Assembly (NCBI GenBank): GCA_028277485.1
Contig: JANQGE010000057.1
Span: 5,709-69,708 of the forward strand
Length of the DNA stretch: 64,000 bases
Reading direction: 5' to 3'
DNA from: Chlorobium sp.
Lineage (GTDB): Bacteria; Bacteroidota; Chlorobiia; Chlorobiales; Chlorobiaceae
The notes under the pieces are model-generated. The model saw nothing but the letters and a program-made list of their open reading frames with translations. It did not search any database and was not told where the DNA came from. This document shows, piece after piece, positions 20,702 to 31,739 of this stretch (positions are counted from its first letter, which is position 1; each line of letters starts with the position of its first letter). Position numbers and translations under genes: made by a program.

Positions 20702-21115
20702 TTGTCGATGATGAACTGGTTTAAAAACAATTCTTCTGTACTCATCATATCGCGGGTTGTGCTTGCTTTTTCGTGGATCTATCAGGGAGCGGTTCCCAAG
20801 GTTATCTGCCGGAGCCCGGAAGAAATCGAGCTTCTGGAGCATGTTGTCGGAGCTTATGAGCTGGCTTGTGCGGCGGTTACCTGGATGGGGTATGGTGAGA
20901 TTGTGTTCGGAATTGTTCTTCTGTTCACATCCCGGGGTTGGGTCTTCCTGCTTAATGTTTTAGCTTTACTAATGCTTTTGGGTTATGTGGCGGTTTTTCA
21001 GCCGGATCTTTTGACCCTGCCGTTTAATCCGCTGATCCTCAACGTGTCCCTTATCGGCATTTCCCTGATAGCCTATGGTGAACTTAGAAAAGACAAAACC
21101 CTTGCAAGGCGCTAA
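20702..21115 (+). CDS. DoxX-like family membrane protein
   Basis: LAFSWIYQGAVPK...GYGEIVFG...PFNPLILN pattern; about 4 TM segments. Confidence 0.8.
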   Translation: MSMMNWFKNNSSVLIISRVVLAFSWIYQGAVPKVICRSPEEIELLEHVVGAYELACAAVTWMGYGEIVFGIVLLFTSRGWVFLLNVLALLMLLGYVAVFQPDLLTLPFNPLILNVSLIGISLIAYGELRKDKTLARR

Positions 21116-22388
21116 AAAAAACCGATTTGCGATCGAGCCGGGTGCAATTGCCAGGATATACCTTTCCGTATCGGTGTTTATCATAACCCTGGCAGCCTTT
21201 CTGGGGGCAGCCGGCGCATGGACCGGCAGTGTGTTTTTCAATACGGTGCATCCGTATGTTTTTTTTGTGGGATTTGGCAATCTGGCGATCCTTATCCTCA
21301 ATCGCTATCTGACTTCCGCAATCTATCCTGCGCTGGAGGTGGATCCCGGAAAGCAGATGCGTTATATTTACGGCGTTTTGCTCTCGGTGTTCTGCGTCAT
21401 TGTGGCGATTTACATGGGGTGGCCGGTTCTCAAGGCTTTTGTCGGTCTGTTCCTCACGGTCATTGTTGCGTTTGCTGCATGGGAAATTTTTTCAACGGCT
21501 TCCGTGGGAAAGATGTGGCGCGAGGTGGCCGTGCGCTACTATGTTTTTGATGTGCTTTTTTTACTCAATGCCAACCTGGGACTGTTTGCTCTGGGGCTCA
21601 AGGAGACCTTCCCCGACCTCGGCGTTATCCCTTTTTTCGTGACCCAGTCTGTATATTTTCTGGGCTCATCCTTTCCGCTGAGCATAAGCGTCATGGGGTT
21701 TCTCTATACATACGTCTGGCGCCGTTCGTCCAAAAGAGAGCTGATCAAACAGCTCTTCAGTATCTGGTTCTATGTTTTCGTGGGAGGCGTGCTGGTTTTT
21801 CTGGTTGCTATTCTGATGGGAAATTACCTCGGTATGATGCTGATAAGTCATACCCTTATGTTAGGTGTCGTGGCAATTCTTGCTGGTTTTTCCCGGTATC
21901 TGTACAGGTTTTTTTCCCGGTATTTCAAGCACCCTGCGCTTGCTTTCCTGCTTTCAGGGCTTGCCCTGCTTTTGGCTGCAAGCGCTTATGGCATCATGAA
22001 TATTTACTTTTTCGAGCAATTCGGCTCCGTGCCGCCGATACCAAAGGACAGTATGTGGATTTATCACTCTCATACTCATGCCGCGCTGCTGGGATGGATA
22101 ACGTTCTCGTTTACAGGTATGGTCTATATTGTGGTTCCGGCTATTGTCCGCACAAACTCGTTTGAGCTGCTGCGGACAGAAGACACCCTTTCGCAACTGC
22201 TTGACGAAAAAACCTTCGCCAGAGCTTTCCGGCAATTGGTCGTTGCCCTGGTTTCGGCAGCAGCGGTTCTCCTGGCTTTCTATCTTGAAAGCAATTCTCT
22301 GCTGGCCCTGTCCGGCATGGTTTTCGGAATCGTCATGTATTACTCGAAGGTTAATCTCGGCAAGGCTTTCCGCAGCTATCCCGCTTAG
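21075..22388 (+). CDS. Polytopic membrane protein, heme-copper oxidase subunit I / NnrS-like
   Basis: About 12 TM segments; His motifs TVHPYVFFVGF and YHSHTHAALLGW. Confidence 0.6.
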   Translation: MVNLEKTKPLQGAKKNRFAIEPGAIARIYLSVSVFIITLAAFLGAAGAWTGSVFFNTVHPYVFFVGFGNLAILILNRYLTSAIYPALEVDPGKQMRYIYGVLLSVFCVIVAIYMGWPVLKAFVGLFLTVIVAFAAWEIFSTASVGKMWREVAVRYYVFDVLFLLNANLGLFALGLKETFPDLGVIPFFVTQSVYFLGSSFPLSISVMGFLYTYVWRRSSKRELIKQLFSIWFYVFVGGVLVFLVAILMGNYLGMMLISHTLMLGVVAILAGFSRYLYRFFSRYFKHPALAFLLSGLALLLAASAYGIMNIYFFEQFGSVPPIPKDSMWIYHSHTHAALLGWITFSFTGMVYIVVPAIVRTNSFELLRTEDTLSQLLDEKTFARAFRQLVVALVSAAAVLLAFYLESNSLLALSGMVFGIVMYYSKVNLGKAFRSYPA

Positions 22389-22401
22389 TAAACAAATAAA
22401 G

Positions 22402-23745
22402 ATGACAATGAGACAAGTTTTGATTATATGTGCATTTTGCATCTTTGCGCTGACTTTCCGGTCAACAGGTCATTCATACGACAACGTGCACTACGGTATT
22501 ATCCAGGAAGGCGTCGAGGAGTGGAACAAGGCGAGAAAGAGTGAGCCCGAAAAGCGTTTTGATCTCAGTGGTGCCATCTTGAAAGGGAAAAATCTCAGGG
22601 GAGTCGATTTCAGCAATACCGATTTACAGGAAGCAATTTTTACGGGTTCCGATCTGAGTGACGCCGATCTTCGCGGAGCGGTTCTCGACGGTGCTGATCT
22701 GAAAAAAGCTCTTCTTTATGACGCAATCCTTCGCGAAGCTTCGTTACGCGACGCCGATCTTGAAGAAGCAAGCCTTGAAGGCGCGGATATGAGAGGTGCT
22801 GTCCTTGACGGTGCGGTCATAAAACAGGCGGATCTTGCTAACAGTGTGCTGCGAGGGGCAAGTCTTCGAGGAGTCGATCTGCGTGCTTCCAGCCTCAGGA
22901 CGGCTGACCTTGCCGGGTGCAACCTTGATGGTGCTTATTTGTGGAGGGCTGTGCTTGACGAAGCAAATCTTGAAAAAGCTCTGGTAACACCGGTGACCGT
23001 TGTTGAAACAGGCAATTATGCCGATCGGGCATGGGCGGAGAAAAAGAGGGCTGTTTTATCGGCTCCTGAAAACAACGACGTTAGCACCATTGCAGCACCG
23101 ATGAACGTGGTCGATGCCGGAGGCAGTGCCGATCGGGTATCGGCAGAAAAGACAATGGTTGCTGGGTCAAGCTCTGACACTCGGTCCATAACATCGGGGA
23201 CGGAAAGCGGGAAGCAGGAAACCGCAGCGGTAGTTCCGGAAAAGACCTGGCCCGTAAATCCCGTACAACAGAAGATCCGGTTTGGTGTGACGCGTCGGGA
23301 TGCCGGAGGCTTGTCTTATGATGTTCACCAGCGCGAGCTGCTGGTCGACAGTGTTTCGCGGTGGAACAAGACGAGAAAAATGAACCCCGAGGCTCCCGTA
23401 CATCTTGCAGGGGCGAAATTAAGCCGGAAAGTGTTGGATGGTGCGGATTTGCGAAATGCGGATCTGAGAGGTGCCCTGTTAAAACGCACTGATCTTATCG
23501 ATGCGGACATGCGGGGGGCCAACCTGACGGGCGCGAACCTTCGTGAAGCGGATCTGACAACCGCGGATCTCGGGGGGGTCGACCTTCGAGGGGCTTATCT
23601 ATGGAGGGCGAATCTCAGCTGGACCATACTTGACGGTGCGGTTGTCAATTCTCTCACTGTTTTGGAAACCGGAAAAAACGCGACTCCGGAATGGGCGGAA
23701 AAAGCAGGTGCGGTGTACCATAGCGCGTCCGACACCGGGGATTAG
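22402..23745 (+). CDS. Exported pentapeptide-repeat protein with two repeat modules
   Basis: Signal peptide from ATG 22402; A(D/N)LxxA repeats; duplicated caps W-N-K-x-R-K and YLWRA...ETG...WAEK. Confidence 0.9.
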   Translation: MTMRQVLIICAFCIFALTFRSTGHSYDNVHYGIIQEGVEEWNKARKSEPEKRFDLSGAILKGKNLRGVDFSNTDLQEAIFTGSDLSDADLRGAVLDGADLKKALLYDAILREASLRDADLEEASLEGADMRGAVLDGAVIKQADLANSVLRGASLRGVDLRASSLRTADLAGCNLDGAYLWRAVLDEANLEKALVTPVTVVETGNYADRAWAEKKRAVLSAPENNDVSTIAAPMNVVDAGGSADRVSAEKTMVAGSSSDTRSITSGTESGKQETAAVVPEKTWPVNPVQQKIRFGVTRRDAGGLSYDVHQRELLVDSVSRWNKTRKMNPEAPVHLAGAKLSRKVLDGADLRNADLRGALLKRTDLIDADMRGANLTGANLREADLTTADLGGVDLRGAYLWRANLSWTILDGAVVNSLTVLETGKNATPEWAEKAGAVYHSASDTGD

Positions 23746-24092: not shown

Positions 24093-24962
24093 ATGAAAAG
24101 AACAGGTGAACCGCTGGTAACGGTTACTATTCCGATGTATAACAATGAGAAGTTCATCAGCCAGACTATTGAATCGATTCTTTCTCAAACATACACCAAT
24201 TTCGAGCTGCTGATCTATGACGACAACTCGACTGACGCATCATACAAGATAGCAACTTCCTTCAGGGATTCCAGGTTGCGTGTTTTCAGAAACGAAAAAA
24301 ACCTGGGCCCTGAAGGGAACTGGAACAGGGCTATTAACAACGTCAGCGGCAAGTATGTCAAACTTATATGCGGTGATGACATTCTCTATCCGAAATGCCT
24401 GGAGAAGCAGGTGGCTGTGTTTGAAAAACATTCGCAGGCCGGTATAAGTCTTGTCTGCAGCCAGCGGACAATTATCAATCCGGAAGGAAAATCCCTGATA
24501 AAGAAGATCAATCTGGTAGACAAAGGAAGGCATAAGGCTGTCGATGTTATCAGAAAGATCATACGAATGGGAACAAATATTCTCGGTGAGCCGGTCTGCG
24601 GACTTTACCCGGCAGTGCTTCTCCCGTATACCCGCGGGTACAGCGCAAAGGTTCCTTACACTATCGATCTTGAATTCTGGATGCAGCTTCTCAGGCTCGG
24701 CGATCTTTATATGATCGATGAATCTCTCTGCGCATTCAGGATTTCCGATGAATCATGGTCGTCGAGGATTGGGGATATGCGCTACCATCACTTTATAGAG
24801 TTTATGGAACAGACGGCTTCGGAAAAGTCGTTCGAGGTGACCGATCTTGACATGTTCATCGGGAAAATCAATTGCGCCGTTCATTCCATGACCAGCACTG
24901 TGGGCTTTAAACTGTTTGCAGGATCTTCCCAGGGAGATGACCGGCCGGCATTCGGCGGTTAA
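24093..24962 (+). CDS. Glycosyltransferase family 2
   Basis: [21 protein letters not shown] (DxD-like) and IDLEFW motifs. Confidence 0.92.
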
Positions 24963-25117
24963 CTTCGGGTTCTTCTCAGAAGGTTTTTACCGGTTCTTTC
25001 CTGGGAAGAAAAGGATTTATTGATGATATTACACAGAGAAATGGTTTGTCTCCGGTTGAGGGCTTTAAGGGCACCTCTATGTATTGTTCATTCTAACACC
25101 ATAAACTGTCGGTAGTT

Positions 25118-25381
25118 ATGTCAGTAGCTTCAGCAAAGGAGTTTTTGGAAAAAATTACATCAGACGATGCTTTTCGCCATGCGCTCATCAGCAAGCTTGC
25201 CAGATACCGGACCGAGCTTGTCAGCCAAGCCGGTTTTGAGTTCAACGAAAAGGAGCTTGACGAGGCCAAATCCGCCTTGCCCGCAGGAAGGTTGGGACAG
25301 GTGCCGAGCTGGTTCTGCGATGTTGAAGAGAGCGGCAAGCCCTATGCGGGGCGCAGGTGCGGCGGCGGACTCTGGCATTAA
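25118..25381 (+). CDS. Nif11-like leader peptide family protein (putative RiPP precursor)
   Basis: MSVASAKEFLEKITSDDAFR...AGFEFNEKEL follows the Nif11 leader pattern; C-terminal tail has 2 Cys and 2 Trp. Confidence 0.8.
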   Translation: MSVASAKEFLEKITSDDAFRHALISKLARYRTELVSQAGFEFNEKELDEAKSALPAGRLGQVPSWFCDVEESGKPYAGRRCGGGLWH

Positions 25382-25432
25382 TACAATGCTTGTTTCTATG
25401 GCTTGCGAACTATCAACCTAACCCCCCCAGAC

Positions 25433-26713
25433 ATGAAACCGATCTGCATCAACAACTATTGCTTTGACCATGCTCACCTGTGGATTCAGTATGACAAGTC
25501 TGTTCCCCTGTTTGTCGAGGTGGCGATAGAGATTTTTTATCCCCGTGACCGCCAGGCAAACGGGCTTGTGATGTTCAACCACGGATTTCTTATCGGTGTC
25601 GACCTGTTGTTCTATCCGAAAAAAATTATCGGACCCCTGTTCAACGACAATCCTCTCTTTGGAGTTCATCCATCGTACTACTACAACTACTCCCGTGCCC
25701 TTGTCGAAAAGAACTGGGCCATGGCGTATGTGACCGCGACACACATACAGGCCCAGGGTATTCCCTGGACCGATTTTGGAGGCAATCCGAGAGTGGGACA
25801 GGAGGCTTATGCCGCCGCCTCTTATCTTATCAAGTACGGCGTGACCGACGAGTTTTACAAAGCGGAAAGACGGTATAAGAACACCTCCCTGTATAAACCC
25901 GAAGAGGTTGAAAAAGCCCGCTTCATGCGTTCTAACAACGTGATTTTTGCGGGTCATTCTGTGGGCGGCGCCCATGCCCAGGTTCCGGCAACCGGTTTCG
26001 AAACTATGCAGAAGATCGGCAACGACACCTGCCGGCCGTTTAACCCGGTTATCTATGACCGTGAAGTTTTTCCCAAATATTCAGACTGCATGTCGGATTG
26101 GGAACCGGAAGAGAGAGCGAACCCTGTCGGTCTCATACAGCTTTCTCCCGTAGATCAGAAGATACCGCTGCTTGCTCCCGGAATGGCTCCATATCGCGAG
26201 GCTTTGTCTGAAAAACCGTTGCCTATACTCATGATTGTCGGGGAATGCGACAGCGCCAGCCTGAAAGATTCACAACCGCCGGCATGGTCTGCAAAACCGG
26301 GGGAGACAACCGAATTTTCTCAGCAGGCACCCGAAGGAAGTGACTCATGGGCGGTTGTTGCAAATGTGAAGCACGGCAGCCACTGCGGCTATCTTACACA
26401 AAAAAGCGATCTATGCAGTCTTGCCGATGAAAATTCAGGTTTGTGTAAAAAAGGCACCCCGACCTGGAAAGCCGGCGGAGAGGAAGCTGCATTTACCACC
26501 GAACTGTTCAAGAAGTTTATCGGCATGTATCCCGACGGCCAAGGGTTTCCCGGTGATTTTAAACAATGGATCCACAGCGATTTCATCCAGTGGCTCAACA
26601 AGGAAAACCCGTATGGTGAGATCAAGCTGGTGCCGTTTGCCGACAAGAGGTATATCGACTATGTCTCGCGCGGCGGCTGCCCGCCGCTGGAAGAGAAAAA
26701 GGGCAAGAAGTAG
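25433..26713 (+). CDS. Alpha/beta hydrolase (chlorophyllase-like motif layout), Cys-rich, no signal peptide
   Basis: NHGF oxyanion region, AGHSVGG nucleophile elbow, LSPVD, GECD and HGSHCGY. Start ATG 25433 or TTG 25403. Confidence 0.75.
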   Translation: MKPICINNYCFDHAHLWIQYDKSVPLFVEVAIEIFYPRDRQANGLVMFNHGFLIGVDLLFYPKKIIGPLFNDNPLFGVHPSYYYNYSRALVEKNWAMAYVTATHIQAQGIPWTDFGGNPRVGQEAYAAASYLIKYGVTDEFYKAERRYKNTSLYKPEEVEKARFMRSNNVIFAGHSVGGAHAQVPATGFETMQKIGNDTCRPFNPVIYDREVFPKYSDCMSDWEPEERANPVGLIQLSPVDQKIPLLAPGMAPYREALSEKPLPILMIVGECDSASLKDSQPPAWSAKPGETTEFSQQAPEGSDSWAVVANVKHGSHCGYLTQKSDLCSLADENSGLCKKGTPTWKAGGEEAAFTTELFKKFIGMYPDGQGFPGDFKQWIHSDFIQWLNKENPYGEIKLVPFADKRYIDYVSRGGCPPLEEKKGKK

Positions 26714-27127: not shown

Positions 27128-27430
27128 TCAGTTTTCAGGATTGACATTTCGGTTTGCCGAGGCATCATAGAGGCTGCCGGAAACATACTTGTGAATAATA
27201 CTGGCAACTAATGTTTGATAGGGGATCCCCTCCTGCAATGCTTTTCTTTGAATTGCTGTCAAATCCCTTCCCGATATCTTTATGCTTATTGTTTTATTTC
27301 GCTTGAATGCCTCCCTTGCGGATTCTTCAAGGAATTTTTTCCTTTCGGGGGTAAGAGTCGAAGTGAATTCTCCCGCTTCATAAGCTTCCAGCATTTCCTG
27401 CTCTTCTTTATCGAGTTTATTGCTATTCAT
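27128..27430 (-). CDS. Antitoxin (CopG/RHH-like, BrnA-type partner)
   Basis: KTISIKISGRDLTAIQRKALQEGIPYQTLVASIIHKYV ribbon-helix-helix pattern; 4-bp overlap with the toxin. Confidence 0.8.
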   Translation of the reverse strand: MNSNKLDKEEQEMLEAYEAGEFTSTLTPERKKFLEESAREAFKRNKTISIKISGRDLTAIQRKALQEGIPYQTLVASIIHKYVSGSLYDASANRNVNPEN

Positions 27431-27705
27431 TTTTTAACTCCCAGATATCGTCGGGTTGCTTTGCGACTCGGCACTATCGTTTTCAGAAAAATTTCCTGCT
27501 CATTTTCAACATAAGGAACAAGGTAAGCGTACTCATCGATGGCAACGATAAAAACCCGCTGGTGTGCATATTGCTCTTTGCCAGGATGAGAGATGTCGTC
27601 AAGCAAACCTCCTGACTGCATCGAAAAAACAATTTCTTCAAAAGAAATTTTTCTTTCAGTGATAAGTTTGCGGTTTTTCTCCGGATTCCAGTTGATGGTT
27701 TTCAT
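27427..27705 (-). CDS. BrnT-like type II toxin
   Basis: WNPEKNRKLITERKISFEEI...YLVPYVE...FLKTIVPSRKAT pattern. Confidence 0.8.
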   Translation of the reverse strand: MKTINWNPEKNRKLITERKISFEEIVFSMQSGGLLDDISHPGKEQYAHQRVFIVAIDEYAYLVPYVENEQEIFLKTIVPSRKATRRYLGVKK

Positions 27706-28040: not shown

Positions 28041-31000
28041 TTGGCTGACTTTCGGGGCCAAGTATTGCCTGAATTGAGCGTTTCAACAAATGCCCAGGGT
28101 TTAGTTATTGCCATTGTGGATACTGCATCTGTGCGCGAGATACCATATAATTATACATCCGCTACCGACGGACAGCTATTGTCGTACCTTTTGGGCGAAG
28201 ATAACGCCCGAATGCTCGACGAACTGAGAGATGTCCGTGTCACCGGGCGTTCGGCGAGGCTGTTGATGCGTATCATCGGCGGGGTTCTTATCCACCGGAG
28301 AAACCCTTACTTGTTTCAGGAGCTTGTTAATTTGCCTCCGCGCAGAAAGAGGCTCTTTCAACAAGCTTTCAAGGATCTCGATACCATTGAAGGTTCTGCG
28401 AACGGAGAGCAGCGGGTTTTATCGATTGTTGCAACGCTGAGAAAGCTCCTTGATAAGTTTCAGGCTGAGGTGGAAAGGGTTCCAGAGTTCAGAAGACACC
28501 TGAAAAGAGAATTCGGGGCTATTGTTGGGGCAAAAAATGTTCTGTTCGATCCGTTCACGCTTGTTTCCCACGCAACCGATGCCACAGACTGGCGCCTGCA
28601 TCTTCCGGTTGCGGTGGCAACCCCTGATGATGAGGCCCAGGTTGGTTCCCTGCTTGTGGCGACAGGAAGGCTTGGACTGAAAGCAATTCCAAGAGGGGCC
28701 GGTACGGGGCTGACCGGGGGTTCTGTTCCGCTTCGTCCGGATTGTGTGATCATCAATACAGAAAAGCTTGACAGGATAAGGGGGATTCATGAACGTGAGT
28801 TTCAGCTTGACGGCGGAGAAACGGTTTCTGCGCCGGTTATAGAGGTTGAGGCGGGTGTCGTCACAGAAAAAGCCATGGCTTATGCCAGCAGCCGCGGTCT
28901 TGTGTTCGCCACCGATCCTACAAGCGAGTGGTCCTGCACTGTCGGCGGAAATATTGCTGAAAATGCCGGAGGAAAAAAGGCTGTCAGATGGGGAACCTGC
29001 ATCGATAATCTTGTCGAGTGGGTTATGGCAATGCCATCGGGGGAAAGCTGGAGGGTTCGCAGGACCAACCACAGACTTCGCAAGATCATGCCGGATGATA
29101 CCGTTATCTACGAAGTGCTGGACCGTACAGGGGAGCTCATCAGGCGCATCGAACTGTGCGGTACCGATATTCGAAAAAAAGGTCTCTGGAAAGATATTAC
29201 CAACAAGGCTCTGGGCGGTGTGCCCGGCCTGCAGAAAGAAGGTACTGACGGAGTGATCACTTCCGCTTTTTTTGTGTTGTACCCGAAGTATGAAGATACA
29301 GCAACACTGTGCCTTGAATTTTTCGGGCCCGATATGGATGAGGCGAGCCGGGTTATTGTGGCGCTGTCGAGGATTTTTCCTCTTTCAACAGATAACAAAG
29401 AGGCATTGCTTGCCCTGGAGCATTTCGACGACGAGTATATCAGGGCGATTGACTACAAGGTCAAGGCGCCCCGTGCCCAGATGCCCAAAGCGGTGTTGCT
29501 GATCGATATTGCAGGCCATAAACCGGAAGAAGTAAAAGCCGGAATCAGCAGAGTTGAGAAGCTGCTTGAACAGCATCCAAACACACTGCTGTTTATTGCC
29601 TCTGATGCAGAAGAGGCACAGCGTTTCTGGGCTGACCGAAAGAAGCTCAGTGCGATTGCACGCAGAACCAACGCATTCAAACTCAATGAGGATGTGGTTA
29701 TTCCCCTTGATGCCCTTGCTGAATTCTCTCGCTTTGTCGATGCGTTGAATATTGAAGAGGAGCGTTATTCGCAGCTTTGTTTCATTGATACGGTACTGGT
29801 CCTGCTGCATGATGCGGATATGGAGGAGGATGGAGAGCAGTTTGCCTCGAAGATACCTCCTGCCAGGGCTCTCTGCTCTGCAACAGGGGAAAAGCTCAGT
29901 ACTTCCGATGAGAAGGCCCTGCGCACCCTTGCTGAAGTACAGGAGTTCCGCAATGAGTTCAATGAGCTGTTTCACGGTTATCCCCATATCGTAAAGGCTT
30001 TCGATGACGCGTTTCAGTATGTGCGTGACCGGCGCATTGTCATTGCTACGCACATGCATGCAGGGGACGGTAACATACATGTTAACATACCTGTCCTCTC
30101 GAATGACCAGCCGATGCTCCGCCGGGCTGATCAGGTTGTTGACAAGGTAATGGCAAAAGTGGTTTCTCTTGGCGGCGTTGTTTCGGGTGAACACGGAATC
30201 GGTGTGACCAAGCTGAAGTATTTGGATAAAAAGCGCATCGATGAGCTTACAGCTTACAGGAAAACGGTCGATCCGGAAGGTGTCATGAATCCGGGCAAAC
30301 TGGACGATTTCGATGTTCTGGATCATATTTTCACCCCATCGTTCAACCTCCTGGAGCTTGAGGCCAATATTCTGAAAAGGGCAAAGATCGAAGAGCTGTC
30401 CAAGAACGTCGATGTCTGTATCCGCTGCGGCAAATGCAAGACGGATTGCTGTGTTTACTATCCTGCCCGCGGTATGTTTTATCACCCGAGAAACAAGAAC
30501 CTGGCTGTCGGCTCGTTGATCGAGGCGCTTCTCTATGTTGCCCAGCGTGAGCGGTCAACCGATTTTGAACTGCTGCAATGGCTCGAAGATGTCGCCGATC
30601 ATTGCACGATATGTCATAAGTGCCTGAAACCTTGCCCTGTCGATATCGATACCGGAGAAGTTTCGGTTCTTGAGCGCGATATCCTTGAGGCAAGGGGGTA
30701 CAAGCATTTTTCGGCGGTTACGCAGATGACGCTGAAGTATCTCGAAAACCGTTCTCCGTTTGTTAACAAGATGTTCCGCAACGGTGTCGTCCGTATGGGC
30801 GGGGCTGCAATCCGCGCGGGCAACAAGCTTGCCAAGCCTCTTCAGCCGGCTGAAAACCCTTCTTCTTTTTATCCTCTCAAGATGGTGCGTTCATCGGTGC
30901 CGCCTGTTCCGGAAGAGACGCTGCGGGACGTGCTCCCGCATTGCGAGCCGGACCAGGTGCTGGTGTTCGAGCCGGACAGGATGAATGGCAGTACGGTGTT

Positions 31001-31739
31001 TTATTTCCCAGGGTGCGGTTCGGAGAGGATGCATTCCTCCATTTCTATGGCGGCAATTCATCTGCTTCTGGAGACAGGAATCAGGGTTGTGCTGCCGCCG
31101 CCGTTTTTATGCTGCGGTTTTCCGGCCTATGTAAATGCGCAAAACGATCAGCACTCGAAGATTGTGCTTCGCAACACGGTGATCTTTACGCAGATCCGCG
31201 AAATGTTTTCCTACCTTGATTTTGATGCCTGTGTCATTTCCTGCGGAACATGCATGGAGGCTCTGGAGGGGATGGAAACCAGGAAGCTGTTTGGCGGGAG
31301 TATTGTTGATGTTATGATCTATGCAAAGAGCCAGGGCCTGAAGTTGAACGGCAGCGACGATCGCCTGTATCATGCGCCCTGCCATGACTCGCTCGGGGGG
31401 AAAGCCCCGGAAAAACTCAAGGATCTTGGCGGTTTCGGGGTGATTACCCCGGTCGAACACTGCTGTTCAGAGGCCGGCACGCTTGCCCTGTCAAGACCCG
31501 ATATTACCGATTCGATGCTGCAGCGCAAGAGGAACGCTATCGGGGAAGCGAAAAAGGAGACAGGTGATACCGTTATACTGACCAATTGTCCTTCCTGTGT
31601 CCAGGGGCTTGGGAGAAGCCGGGATCTGGGCGTGGAGCCGCTTCATATTGCGGTTGCAATTGCTGAAAAGATTTCGGGCCCCGACTGGAAAGCGCGTTTC
31701 AGAGAGCAGGCGGCAAGAGCAGCCGCTGTAAGATTTTAA
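28041..31739 (+). CDS. Large FAD-linked oxidase / 4Fe-4S / CCG-domain oxidoreductase (DUF3683-type N-terminus)
   Basis: REIPYNYTS, PRGAGTGLTGG, HAGDGNIH, SGEHGIG, CxxCxxC clusters and CCG domains. True start may be GTG 28116 or 28131. Confidence 0.9.
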   Translation: MADFRGQVLPELSVSTNAQGLVIAIVDTASVREIPYNYTSATDGQLLSYLLGEDNARMLDELRDVRVTGRSARLLMRIIGGVLIHRRNPYLFQELVNLPPRRKRLFQQAFKDLDTIEGSANGEQRVLSIVATLRKLLDKFQAEVERVPEFRRHLKREFGAIVGAKNVLFDPFTLVSHATDATDWRLHLPVAVATPDDEAQVGSLLVATGRLGLKAIPRGAGTGLTGGSVPLRPDCVIINTEKLDRIRGIHEREFQLDGGETVSAPVIEVEAGVVTEKAMAYASSRGLVFATDPTSEWSCTVGGNIAENAGGKKAVRWGTCIDNLVEWVMAMPSGESWRVRRTNHRLRKIMPDDTVIYEVLDRTGELIRRIELCGTDIRKKGLWKDITNKALGGVPGLQKEGTDGVITSAFFVLYPKYEDTATLCLEFFGPDMDEASRVIVALSRIFPLSTDNKEALLALEHFDDEYIRAIDYKVKAPRAQMPKAVLLIDIAGHKPEEVKAGISRVEKLLEQHPNTLLFIASDAEEAQRFWADRKKLSAIARRTNAFKLNEDVVIPLDALAEFSRFVDALNIEEERYSQLCFIDTVLVLLHDADMEEDGEQFASKIPPARALCSATGEKLSTSDEKALRTLAEVQEFRNEFNELFHGYPHIVKAFDDAFQYVRDRRIVIATHMHAGDGNIHVNIPVLSNDQPMLRRADQVVDKVMAKVVSLGGVVSGEHGIGVTKLKYLDKKRIDELTAYRKTVDPEGVMNPGKLDDFDVLDHIFTPSFNLLELEANILKRAKIEELSKNVDVCIRCGKCKTDCCVYYPARGMFYHPRNKNLAVGSLIEALLYVAQRERSTDFELLQWLEDVADHCTICHKCLKPCPVDIDTGEVSVLERDILEARGYKHFSAVTQMTLKYLENRSPFVNKMFRNGVVRMGGAAIRAGNKLAKPLQPAENPSSFYPLKMVRSSVPPVPEETLRDVLPHCEPDQVLVFEPDRMNGSTVFYFPGCGSERMHSSISMAAIHLLLETGIRVVLPPPFLCCGFPAYVNAQNDQHSKIVLRNTVIFTQIREMFSYLDFDACVISCGTCMEALEGMETRKLFGGSIVDVMIYAKSQGLKLNGSDDRLYHAPCHDSLGGKAPEKLKDLGGFGVITPVEHCCSEAGTLALSRPDITDSMLQRKRNAIGEAKKETGDTVILTNCPSCVQGLGRSRDLGVEPLHIAVAIAEKISGPDWKARFREQAARAAAVRF

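Follow-up and report, generated by a model that had tools for sequence, protein, structure and literature searches.

How does a peptide that carries the leader domain of a ribosomally made and post-translationally modified peptide (RiPP) precursor, but lacks the Gly-Gly site at which such leaders are cut, come to be encoded directly in front of a serine hydrolase, and does the enzyme act on it? The locus that raises this question lies in a stretch of 64,000 nucleotides, here called the window, from a Chlorobium sp. assembly (GCA_028277485.1, contig JANQGE010000057.1, positions 5,709 to 69,708), where three genes follow one another on the plus strand: a family 2 glycosyltransferase (GT2; 24093-24962), an 87-residue open reading frame (ORF; 25118-25381) and the hydrolase (25433-26713). 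The peptide starts 155 bp after the end of the GT2, and its stop codon is 51 bp from the hydrolase ATG. A preliminary description of this DNA had placed the 87-residue ORF correctly, with the sequence ...ALPAGRLGQVPSW / FCDVEESGKPYAGRRCGGGLWH that we also read there, had noted the GT2 just upstream on the same strand, and had proposed a RiPP-like peptide cleaved or cyclized by the hydrolase and perhaps glycosylated by the GT2 or, as an alternative, a Nif11 protein that regulates the hydrolase. Our comparison of 121 genomes of the class, 107 of them Chlorobiaceae, favors a narrower answer, namely that peptide and hydrolase make up an accessory module of two co-transcribed genes, with the tail of the peptide as the target of the enzyme. 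We hold this reading tentatively, as plausible rather than probable.

The peptide scores narrowly above the cut-offs of both leader models, with 29.7 bits against PF07862 (cut-off 23.8) and 34.6 bits against TIGR03798 (cut-off 32.3), which bears out its assignment as a Nif11 leader protein. The PF07862 match spans residues 1-47 and the TIGR03798 match covers only model positions 1-53 of 68, leaving the cleavage-box part unmatched, and the profile matches of the peptide are confined to its first ~50 residues. The leader-like domain as we delimit it comprises residues 1-62 (25118-25303, plus strand), with helices predicted at low confidence at residues 3-15, 17-37 and 44-52. The reported loss of the usual cleavage box proved to be real, because in alignment A3, which includes the canonical N11P sequences P0166-P0170, the '...AAGG' of ordinary precursors falls on '...VAGW' in the relatives and on 'VPSW' in the window. 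Read up to the cleavage position, the canonical sequence ...LSPEALDQAAGG stands against ...LPPGALGHVAGW in the relatives and LPAGRLGQVPSW in the window. The equivalent of the Gly-Gly pair is thereby S64-W65 here (25307-25312, plus strand) and G-W or A-W in the relatives; the position reads VAGW, VAAW or VPSW in every family member, and the motif ELSDEELEAVAGG was found in none of them. Relatives of the peptide come from Chlorobi only, and both NCBI and JGI label them as Nif11-like natural-product precursors, the NCBI name for the Chlorobi members being 'Nif11-like leader peptide family natural product precursor'. These profile matches and alignments support the view that the peptide descends from Nif11-type RiPP leader peptides and has been, in a sense, 'domesticated'.

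Beyond the cleavage position the peptide ends in a 22-residue tail (F66-H87; 25313-25381 with the stop codon, plus strand), in which near-invariant flanks, FCD and GRRCGGGLWH in the window, enclose a variable 9-residue loop (residues 69-77). The tail comes in two types, type A with the pattern FC[DEQ]-x8-RGRxCGGG[LV]WH and type B, found in part of genus g2, with the pattern FC[NYF]-x8-[KS]GHCCSSG[LV]WH. In every homologue the ORF closes directly behind WH, with ...G[LV]WH as the unvarying C-terminus. Among the 14 rows of the paired alignment A5, W65, C67, G78, C81, G84, W86 and H87 are invariant; in the wider family C67 alone is fully so, with G78 and C81 close behind. Synonymous sites are saturated across these comparisons, while the proportion of nonsynonymous differences (pN) is 0.15-0.31 for the leader (residues 1-62), 0.008-0.075 for the tail flanks (residues 63-68 and 78-87) and 0.20-0.68 for the loop between the cysteines (residues 69-77), and strong purifying selection thus bears on the tail flanks and the C-terminus. 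The tail had been taken for the core of a RiPP; a variable core it is not, being the most conserved part of the peptide. By the measure of these rates, the conservation pattern is the reverse of that of a normal N11P, in which a conserved leader precedes a hypervariable core. With its Gly-Gly site lost, a single copy and tail flanks more constrained than the leader, the peptide is not a typical RiPP precursor.

The genome offers this leader no canonical partner, since it encodes no LanC-like protein, no C39 peptidase above cut-off and no other Nif11 protein. In agreement with the preliminary description, no lanthionine synthetase, YcaO, radical SAM enzyme or C39 transporter is found among the genes of the window. 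Across the whole of the window's own genome (2.5 Mb, 100% complete), the atypical peptide is the single Nif11 gene, a profile search returned no LanC-like gene anywhere, and the best C39 match reached 19.6 bits against a cut-off of 22; YcaO and radical SAM enzymes were sought in the window, and no genome-wide search for them was made. That C39-like match is the N-terminal region of a 720-aa ORF outside the window (G000:C2:33368-33727), conceivably an ABC exporter whose peptidase domain has degenerated. Canonical Nif11-leader arrays do occur elsewhere in Chlorobiaceae, at G034:C12:45084-59872 (13 matches) and G061:C6:87256-102835 (11 matches), where the matches are leader-only.

The distribution of the two genes is asymmetric. 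Full-length peptide genes occur in 43 of the 121 genomes and the hydrolase in 83, of which 80 are among the 107 Chlorobiaceae. All 43 peptide genomes encode the hydrolase, and in 34 of them the peptide lies directly upstream of it on the same strand, always peptide first, in three genera and with gaps of 45-155 nt in the loci that were fetched (up to ~200 nt by genome-search coordinates); in the remaining nine the peptide lies away from any hydrolase gene. The hypergeometric probability of the peptide never occurring without the hydrolase is 5e-8 for the family and 0.011 within genus g3 alone, both uncorrected for phylogeny. The expectation that the two genes would co-occur across genomes therefore stands for the peptide and fails for the hydrolase, homologues of which are found without the peptide in ~40 of 83 genomes, the outgroup family f2 included, a finding that the preliminary description had named as speaking against its own proposal. 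In f2 a lone hydrolase gene sits between genes of the opposite strand. The dependence is thus one-way, the peptide never without a hydrolase in the genome and the hydrolase often without the peptide, and because ~40 genomes carry it in this way, the hydrolase works on its own. When membership 'in the cluster with the peptide' is mapped on a tree of the hydrolases, three changes are required; the peptide-linked copies of g2 form a long-branch clade, and out-of-cluster copies group with g3 and g1 sequences. Two further candidates were discarded during these comparisons. An 87-aa 'hydrolase remnant' following a relocated peptide gene in G049 arose from the clustering and is the peptide gene itself read as an ORF in an alternative frame. 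No other small conserved ORF precedes the out-of-cluster hydrolases, the candidate 'c20' being another frame inside the hydrolase gene.

The hydrolase ORF is open from a TTG at 25403 to 26713 (436 aa), but all homologues begin at the ATG at 25433 (MKPICINN), and we therefore take the protein to be 426 aa long and the gap to the peptide to be 51 bp. The features first reported for it are all present, including GHSVGG, LSPVD, exactly nine cysteines and the absence of a hydrophobic N-terminus, and a further motif, GSHCGY, was found. A hydropathy check gave no sign of a hydrophobic N-terminus or signal peptide, and the enzyme is probably cytoplasmic. Its 118 homologue clusters are all from Chlorobi; the named sources of hydrolase and peptide homologues are Prosthecochloris, Chlorobium, Chlorobaculum, unclassified Chlorobiaceae and Chloroherpeton, which puts the window among green sulfur bacteria, near Prosthecochloris. 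The hydrolase of P. marina is 83% identical to that of the window. From 1.84 billion representative proteins, a profile of the family recovered seven, each a family member or a fragment of one, and Pfam, NCBIfam and PDB sequence searches returned nothing significant. To judge from these searches, the hydrolase family is an orphan restricted to Chlorobi. An alignment of 37 members is invariant at H50-G51, G174-H175-S176-x-G178, D241 (in SPVD), D273 and H317 (in GSHCGY), and four cysteines are kept in at least 35 of the 37 (C272, C318, C328 and C338, with C318 in 35). In the AlphaFold2 model (mean predicted local distance difference test score, pLDDT, 87.8; predicted template modeling score, pTM, 0.91), S176 follows strand 169-175, D273 follows strand 265-270 and H317 follows strand 307-312, in the order that is canonical for alpha/beta hydrolases. 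The catalytic set would consist of Ser176 as the nucleophile of G-H-S-V-G-G (codon 25958-25960, plus strand, invariant in 37/37), Asp273 as the probable acid next to C272 (26249-26251, plus strand) or, alternatively, the invariant Asp241 (26153-26155, plus strand), and His317 as the probable base (26381-26383, plus strand); the set is intact and invariant, and the assignment of acid and base, which follows the model, is probable.

Structural comparison of the hydrolase with Foldseek gave cutinases/PETases and Lp-PLA2 as the best matches (E ~1e-7, identity 8-14%, TM-score 0.3-0.4 by query and 0.46-0.61 by target), among 208 alpha/beta-hydrolase matches in the PDB at E <= 0.001. In the predicted structure the core fold is common with cutinase and Lp-PLA2 and is interrupted by large insertions. 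A Pfam scan of all 37 members gave sub-threshold matches only, located at the nucleophile elbow. The layout had been called chlorophyllase-like, a likeness that did not hold up: PF07224 is touched by two of the 37 members with a best E of 0.16, and the window protein matches neither PF07224 nor PF12740. We also considered a pigment hydrolase such as BciC, which in green sulfur bacteria hydrolyzes chlorophyllide a (PMC9066304), and rejected it on distribution, no direct comparison with the BciC sequence having been made, as the hydrolase is absent from 27 of the 107 Chlorobiaceae, many of them at least 99% complete, and such absences clash with an enzyme needed for the main antenna pigment. Nor is an S9 prolyl oligopeptidase supported; PF00326 appears weakly in three of the 37 members (best E = 0.003), and the top 50 structural matches are cutinases/PETases, Lp-PLA2 and other esterases, none of them described as such an enzyme.

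An element between the GT2 and the peptide, CTGGGA...TTGATGATATTA (25000-25033, plus strand), is a candidate promoter -10 region or operator of the pair. Its 12-nt part, TTGCKGATATTR, is found with at most three mismatches 50-150 nt upstream of the peptide in most genomes of g1 and g3 and in some of g2, and it also precedes the relocated peptide genes of G049 and G048. The copy at 25020-25031 ranks first among the matches of the window, where the element is over-represented throughout (41 occurrences, with 16.7 expected), an excess that suggests a promoter element of a generic -10 type. Between peptide and hydrolase, prediction gave no terminator-like site, and a weak hairpin over the peptide stop is the only structure. 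Together, the upstream element and the lack of a predicted terminator point to a peptide-hydrolase transcript that starts after the GT2. No structured RNA was matched in Rfam at E <= 1 between 23700 and 28100. In the loci L012 and L033 (G094), the interval between GT2 and peptide is lengthened by ~five tandem copies of the short repeat GAGCAATGA together with a hairpin, which lie upstream of the conserved TTGCGGATATTA element.

The two genes share a reading frame (25118-26710), split by one TAA and 17 sense codons, so that read-through would give a fusion with an 18-residue linker. Thirteen related loci are likewise in frame, with one to three stops in the linker; the shared frame is probably not meaningful, as the proportion is about that expected by chance. 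These natural read-through fusions provided the paired alignment A5 for complex modeling with AlphaFold2, an unpaired alignment (A4) having misplaced the peptide tails. The resulting fusion model, built on a shallow alignment of 14 rows and with a short tether, had a mean pLDDT of 61.7 and a pTM of 0.70, with peptide residues 28-107 below 50. With so few rows it neither supports a defined complex nor speaks against one. In it the tail looks like a disordered peptide, with no folded domain, as would be expected of a substrate-like peptide.

From this evidence we propose the following working scheme. The pair would be a two-gene module specific to Chlorobiaceae, set at a fixed site of a conserved gene backbone between the GT2, or a short-chain dehydrogenase/reductase (SDR), and a large oxidase containing flavin adenine dinucleotide (FAD) and iron-sulfur (FeS) parts, and probably under its own promoter. 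The two genes would be co-transcribed and the peptide would be a dedicated client of the hydrolase, which could stand in for the missing C39 protease by cutting at or near the bond between W65 and F66, or could act on the Cys/His tail by ester, thioester or acyl-transfer chemistry. A single conserved small peptide would result and not a library of variable bacteriocins, the hydrolase may also have an esterase role that is independent of the peptide, and the GT2 would lie outside the system. Client status for the peptide is favored by the g2 genomes that are missing the adjacent hydrolase, since they still carry a paralogue elsewhere. Several observations weigh against this scheme. Nearly half of the hydrolase genomes manage without the peptide, Chloroherpeton-like outgroups among them; at the site itself, the peptide stands alone in six g2 genomes, whose sole hydrolase is the paralogue elsewhere, and the hydrolase stands alone in G049, G066, G029, G062 and G084; the pair is never found together at a second locus; and the fusion model, for all the shallowness of its alignment and the short tether, shows no confident docking of the peptide, with a tail pLDDT of ~27-30.

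The strongest competitor, which we regard as somewhat unlikely, attributes the adjacency to inherited synteny only. On this explanation the peptide is an independent Nif11 protein that uses the Cys/Asp/His tail for metal or redox purposes, the hydrolase is an unrelated lineage-specific esterase, and both happen to occupy a variable slot. The backbone around that slot runs in the order DoxX, a protein with 12 predicted transmembrane (TM) segments that we call MEM, an exported pentapeptide-repeat protein, GT2, in some genomes an SDR, then the FAD oxidase and an ATPase. Genomes without peptide and hydrolase still keep DoxX, MEM, GT2, FAD oxidase and ATPase in this order, with the pentapeptide-repeat protein and the SDR as variable members, and because the backbone persists in this way, we count the GT2 as part of this core synteny, with no specific link to the peptide. 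A seven-gene cluster running from DoxX through MEM, pentapeptide-repeat protein, GT2 and SDR to peptide and hydrolase, first suggested by maps of 39 loci, was rejected as core synteny for this reason and because nearly all Chlorobiaceae have MEM. A single fixed site carries the peptide-hydrolase pair as a variable insert, and all four of its states are seen: both genes, peptide alone, hydrolase alone and neither. Retention of the backbone across the family with or without the pair, and independent loss or retention of each gene, are what inherited synteny would predict. It also accounts for G049 and G048, in which the peptide gene has moved beside glyA, away from the hydrolase, with its tail intact, for the monocistronic hydrolase genes in other contexts, and for the lack of predicted docking. 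As no joint move of the pair is seen and synteny is strong, the adjacency may descend from a single ancestral arrangement, so that the counts given above are not independent. What this explanation accommodates less easily is that the peptide occurs without a hydrolase in none of 43 genomes, a pattern that is seen within g3 alone, that the two genes lie on the same strand with a short gap and no terminator-like site predicted between them, and that purifying selection still acts on the Nif11 leader in a genome that has no canonical enzyme to bind it.

A more specific version of the favored reading, in which the pair constitutes a minimal two-gene RiPP-like pathway, seems to us unlikely in its full form. 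Here the hydrolase alone would mature a conserved core with two Cys, Trp and His in the cytoplasm, either by removing the leader at the Trp-Phe bond or by forming a ring or thioester, and would do so without C39, LanM, YcaO or radical SAM enzymes; the product would be a single conserved small peptide, such as a signal, a metal binder or a cofactor-like molecule, specific to green sulfur bacteria.

It is also doubtful, in our estimation, that the peptide is a partner of the hydrolase without being its substrate, that is, an unprocessed regulator, inhibitor or targeting subunit that inserts, for example, its C-terminal G-L-W-H into the active site or docks on the enzyme through the Nif11 domain. 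The one-way dependence of peptide on hydrolase would fit such a role, as would a single-copy peptide with an exact C-terminus and invariant tail flanks, encoded just upstream of the enzyme. The fusion model, however, gave no confident complex, and across six or seven g2 genomes the same type B tail has as its counterpart in some the adjacent hydrolase, in others a paralogue elsewhere that is ~50% different, which sits badly with a tight and specific interface. We know of no precedent for a Nif11 domain acting as the partner or regulator of an enzyme. Highly improbable is the model from which this analysis set out, a non-canonical RiPP glycosylated by the GT2 and then cleaved or cyclized by the hydrolase: GT2-family enzymes do glycosylate glycocins and this one lies on the same strand 155 bp upstream of the peptide, but it is kept in genomes that lack both genes, resembles polysaccharide and lipid-linked GT2s (TuaG, EpsE, PglI), and is separated from the peptide by the conserved promoter-like element.

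The GT2 itself (24093-24962, plus strand; PF00535, E = 1.4e-29) we judge to be a backbone neighbor outside the module. Upstream, at 20702-23745, lies a tight operon made up of a DoxX_3 gene, the gene of the ~437-aa 12-TM protein, which has an HSHTH motif and no Pfam or NCBIfam match, and that of the exported pentapeptide-repeat protein. MEM occurs in 106 of the 107 Chlorobiaceae genomes sampled and in no other family of the class, and is a family-defining core gene of Chlorobiaceae. A FabG-like SDR of 252 aa lies between GT2 and peptide in g2 and g3 (L037-L049 and L053-L058; e.g., L046:7046-7804) and is absent from the genus of the window. Downstream, on the minus strand between hydrolase and FAD oxidase (27128-27705), are a BrnT-like toxin (25.3 bits against PF04365) and a CopG-like antitoxin (25.8 bits against PF12441), each scoring below its Pfam cut-off; no counterpart of this pair was seen at the site in the 38 related loci compared. 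The adjoining 1232-aa protein (28041-31739) reads by eye as an FAD-linked oxidase fused to an Fe-S/CCG part of glycolate-oxidase type, and in g1 and g3 it bounds the slot of peptide and hydrolase on the downstream side as a conserved neighbor.

A Nif11 leader is taken as a dependable sign of a RiPP precursor cut by C39 transporters at a Gly-Gly site, and annotation pipelines label the family as a 'natural product precursor'. The subfamily described here breaks three rules of its class, in that it has no Gly-Gly site, is single-copy and carries a frozen tail. Should the hydrolase process the peptide, the pair would represent a new and very small maturation route for a conserved product in ecologically important anoxygenic phototrophs; should it not, a RiPP leader domain would have been re-used as an ordinary small protein, which would be a caution against annotation by the leader alone. 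In either case the hydrolase is an uncharacterized enzyme family confined to Chlorobi and found in three quarters of Chlorobiaceae.

Among known systems, the closest by sequence are the N11P precursors (TIGR03798), such as the prochlorosin precursor ProcA, whose Nif11 domain is homologous and can be aligned up to the cleavage position. That family is characterized by a Gly-Gly motif, paralogous expansion and a hypervariable core (PMC2887384), and C39 transporters use the Gly-Gly site of such precursors (PMC10885120; PMC2887384), whereas here there is one copy with a conserved tail, no Gly-Gly site, and no C39 transporter or LanM, YcaO or radical SAM neighbor. In the library searched we found no paper that joins Nif11 with green sulfur bacteria other than Haft et al. 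2010, where Chlorobium N11P are mentioned that come with Gly-Gly sites and transporters (PMC2887384). A glycocin system would call for a SunS-type glycosyltransferase that tracks the peptide, and the GT2 here, which is present without the peptide, scores 14.1 bits against the SunS model TIGR04195, whose cut-off is 350. By fold, the hydrolase has a GxSxG nucleophile and Cys residues next to the catalytic Asp and His in common with cutinase/PETase and Lp-PLA2 (PAF acetylhydrolase), but it has 426 aa against ~260, an identity of 8-14%, large insertions and no signal peptide that we could see, and it reaches no Pfam threshold. In function the nearest analogy may be with the removal of RiPP leaders by enzymes of the serine-esterase or prolyl-oligopeptidase type, as documented for CgnD, the SGNH esterase of crocagin, and the prolyl oligopeptidase FlaP, in which the gene of a serine hydrolase lies beside that of the precursor and the enzyme takes off the leader within the cell (PMC10885120), the role proposed here by analogy. 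The hydrolase is unrelated to these enzymes in sequence; the fold of CgnD is of the SGNH type, and a beta-propeller is part of S9 enzymes. BotH (bottromycin) and NosK (nosiheptide) are enzymes of alpha/beta fold that act on Cys-containing RiPP cores by epimerization or by acyl transfer to Cys, although they are not known to be homologous to the hydrolase and their pathways add YcaO, radical SAM and other enzymes, of which the window has no YcaO or radical SAM enzyme. PqqA and the mycofactocin precursor MftA are, like the present peptide, encoded once per genome, and they end in an invariant C-terminal core that yields a single conserved product. Their maturation requires radical SAM enzymes and dedicated peptidases, MftE (PMC10885120) being one such peptidase, and none of these was noted here, radical SAM enzymes having been sought in the window only. 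Set against all of these, what is new at this locus is a branch of the Nif11 peptide family without the Gly-Gly site, single-copy and with a conserved tail, that is encoded beside a serine hydrolase known only from Chlorobi.

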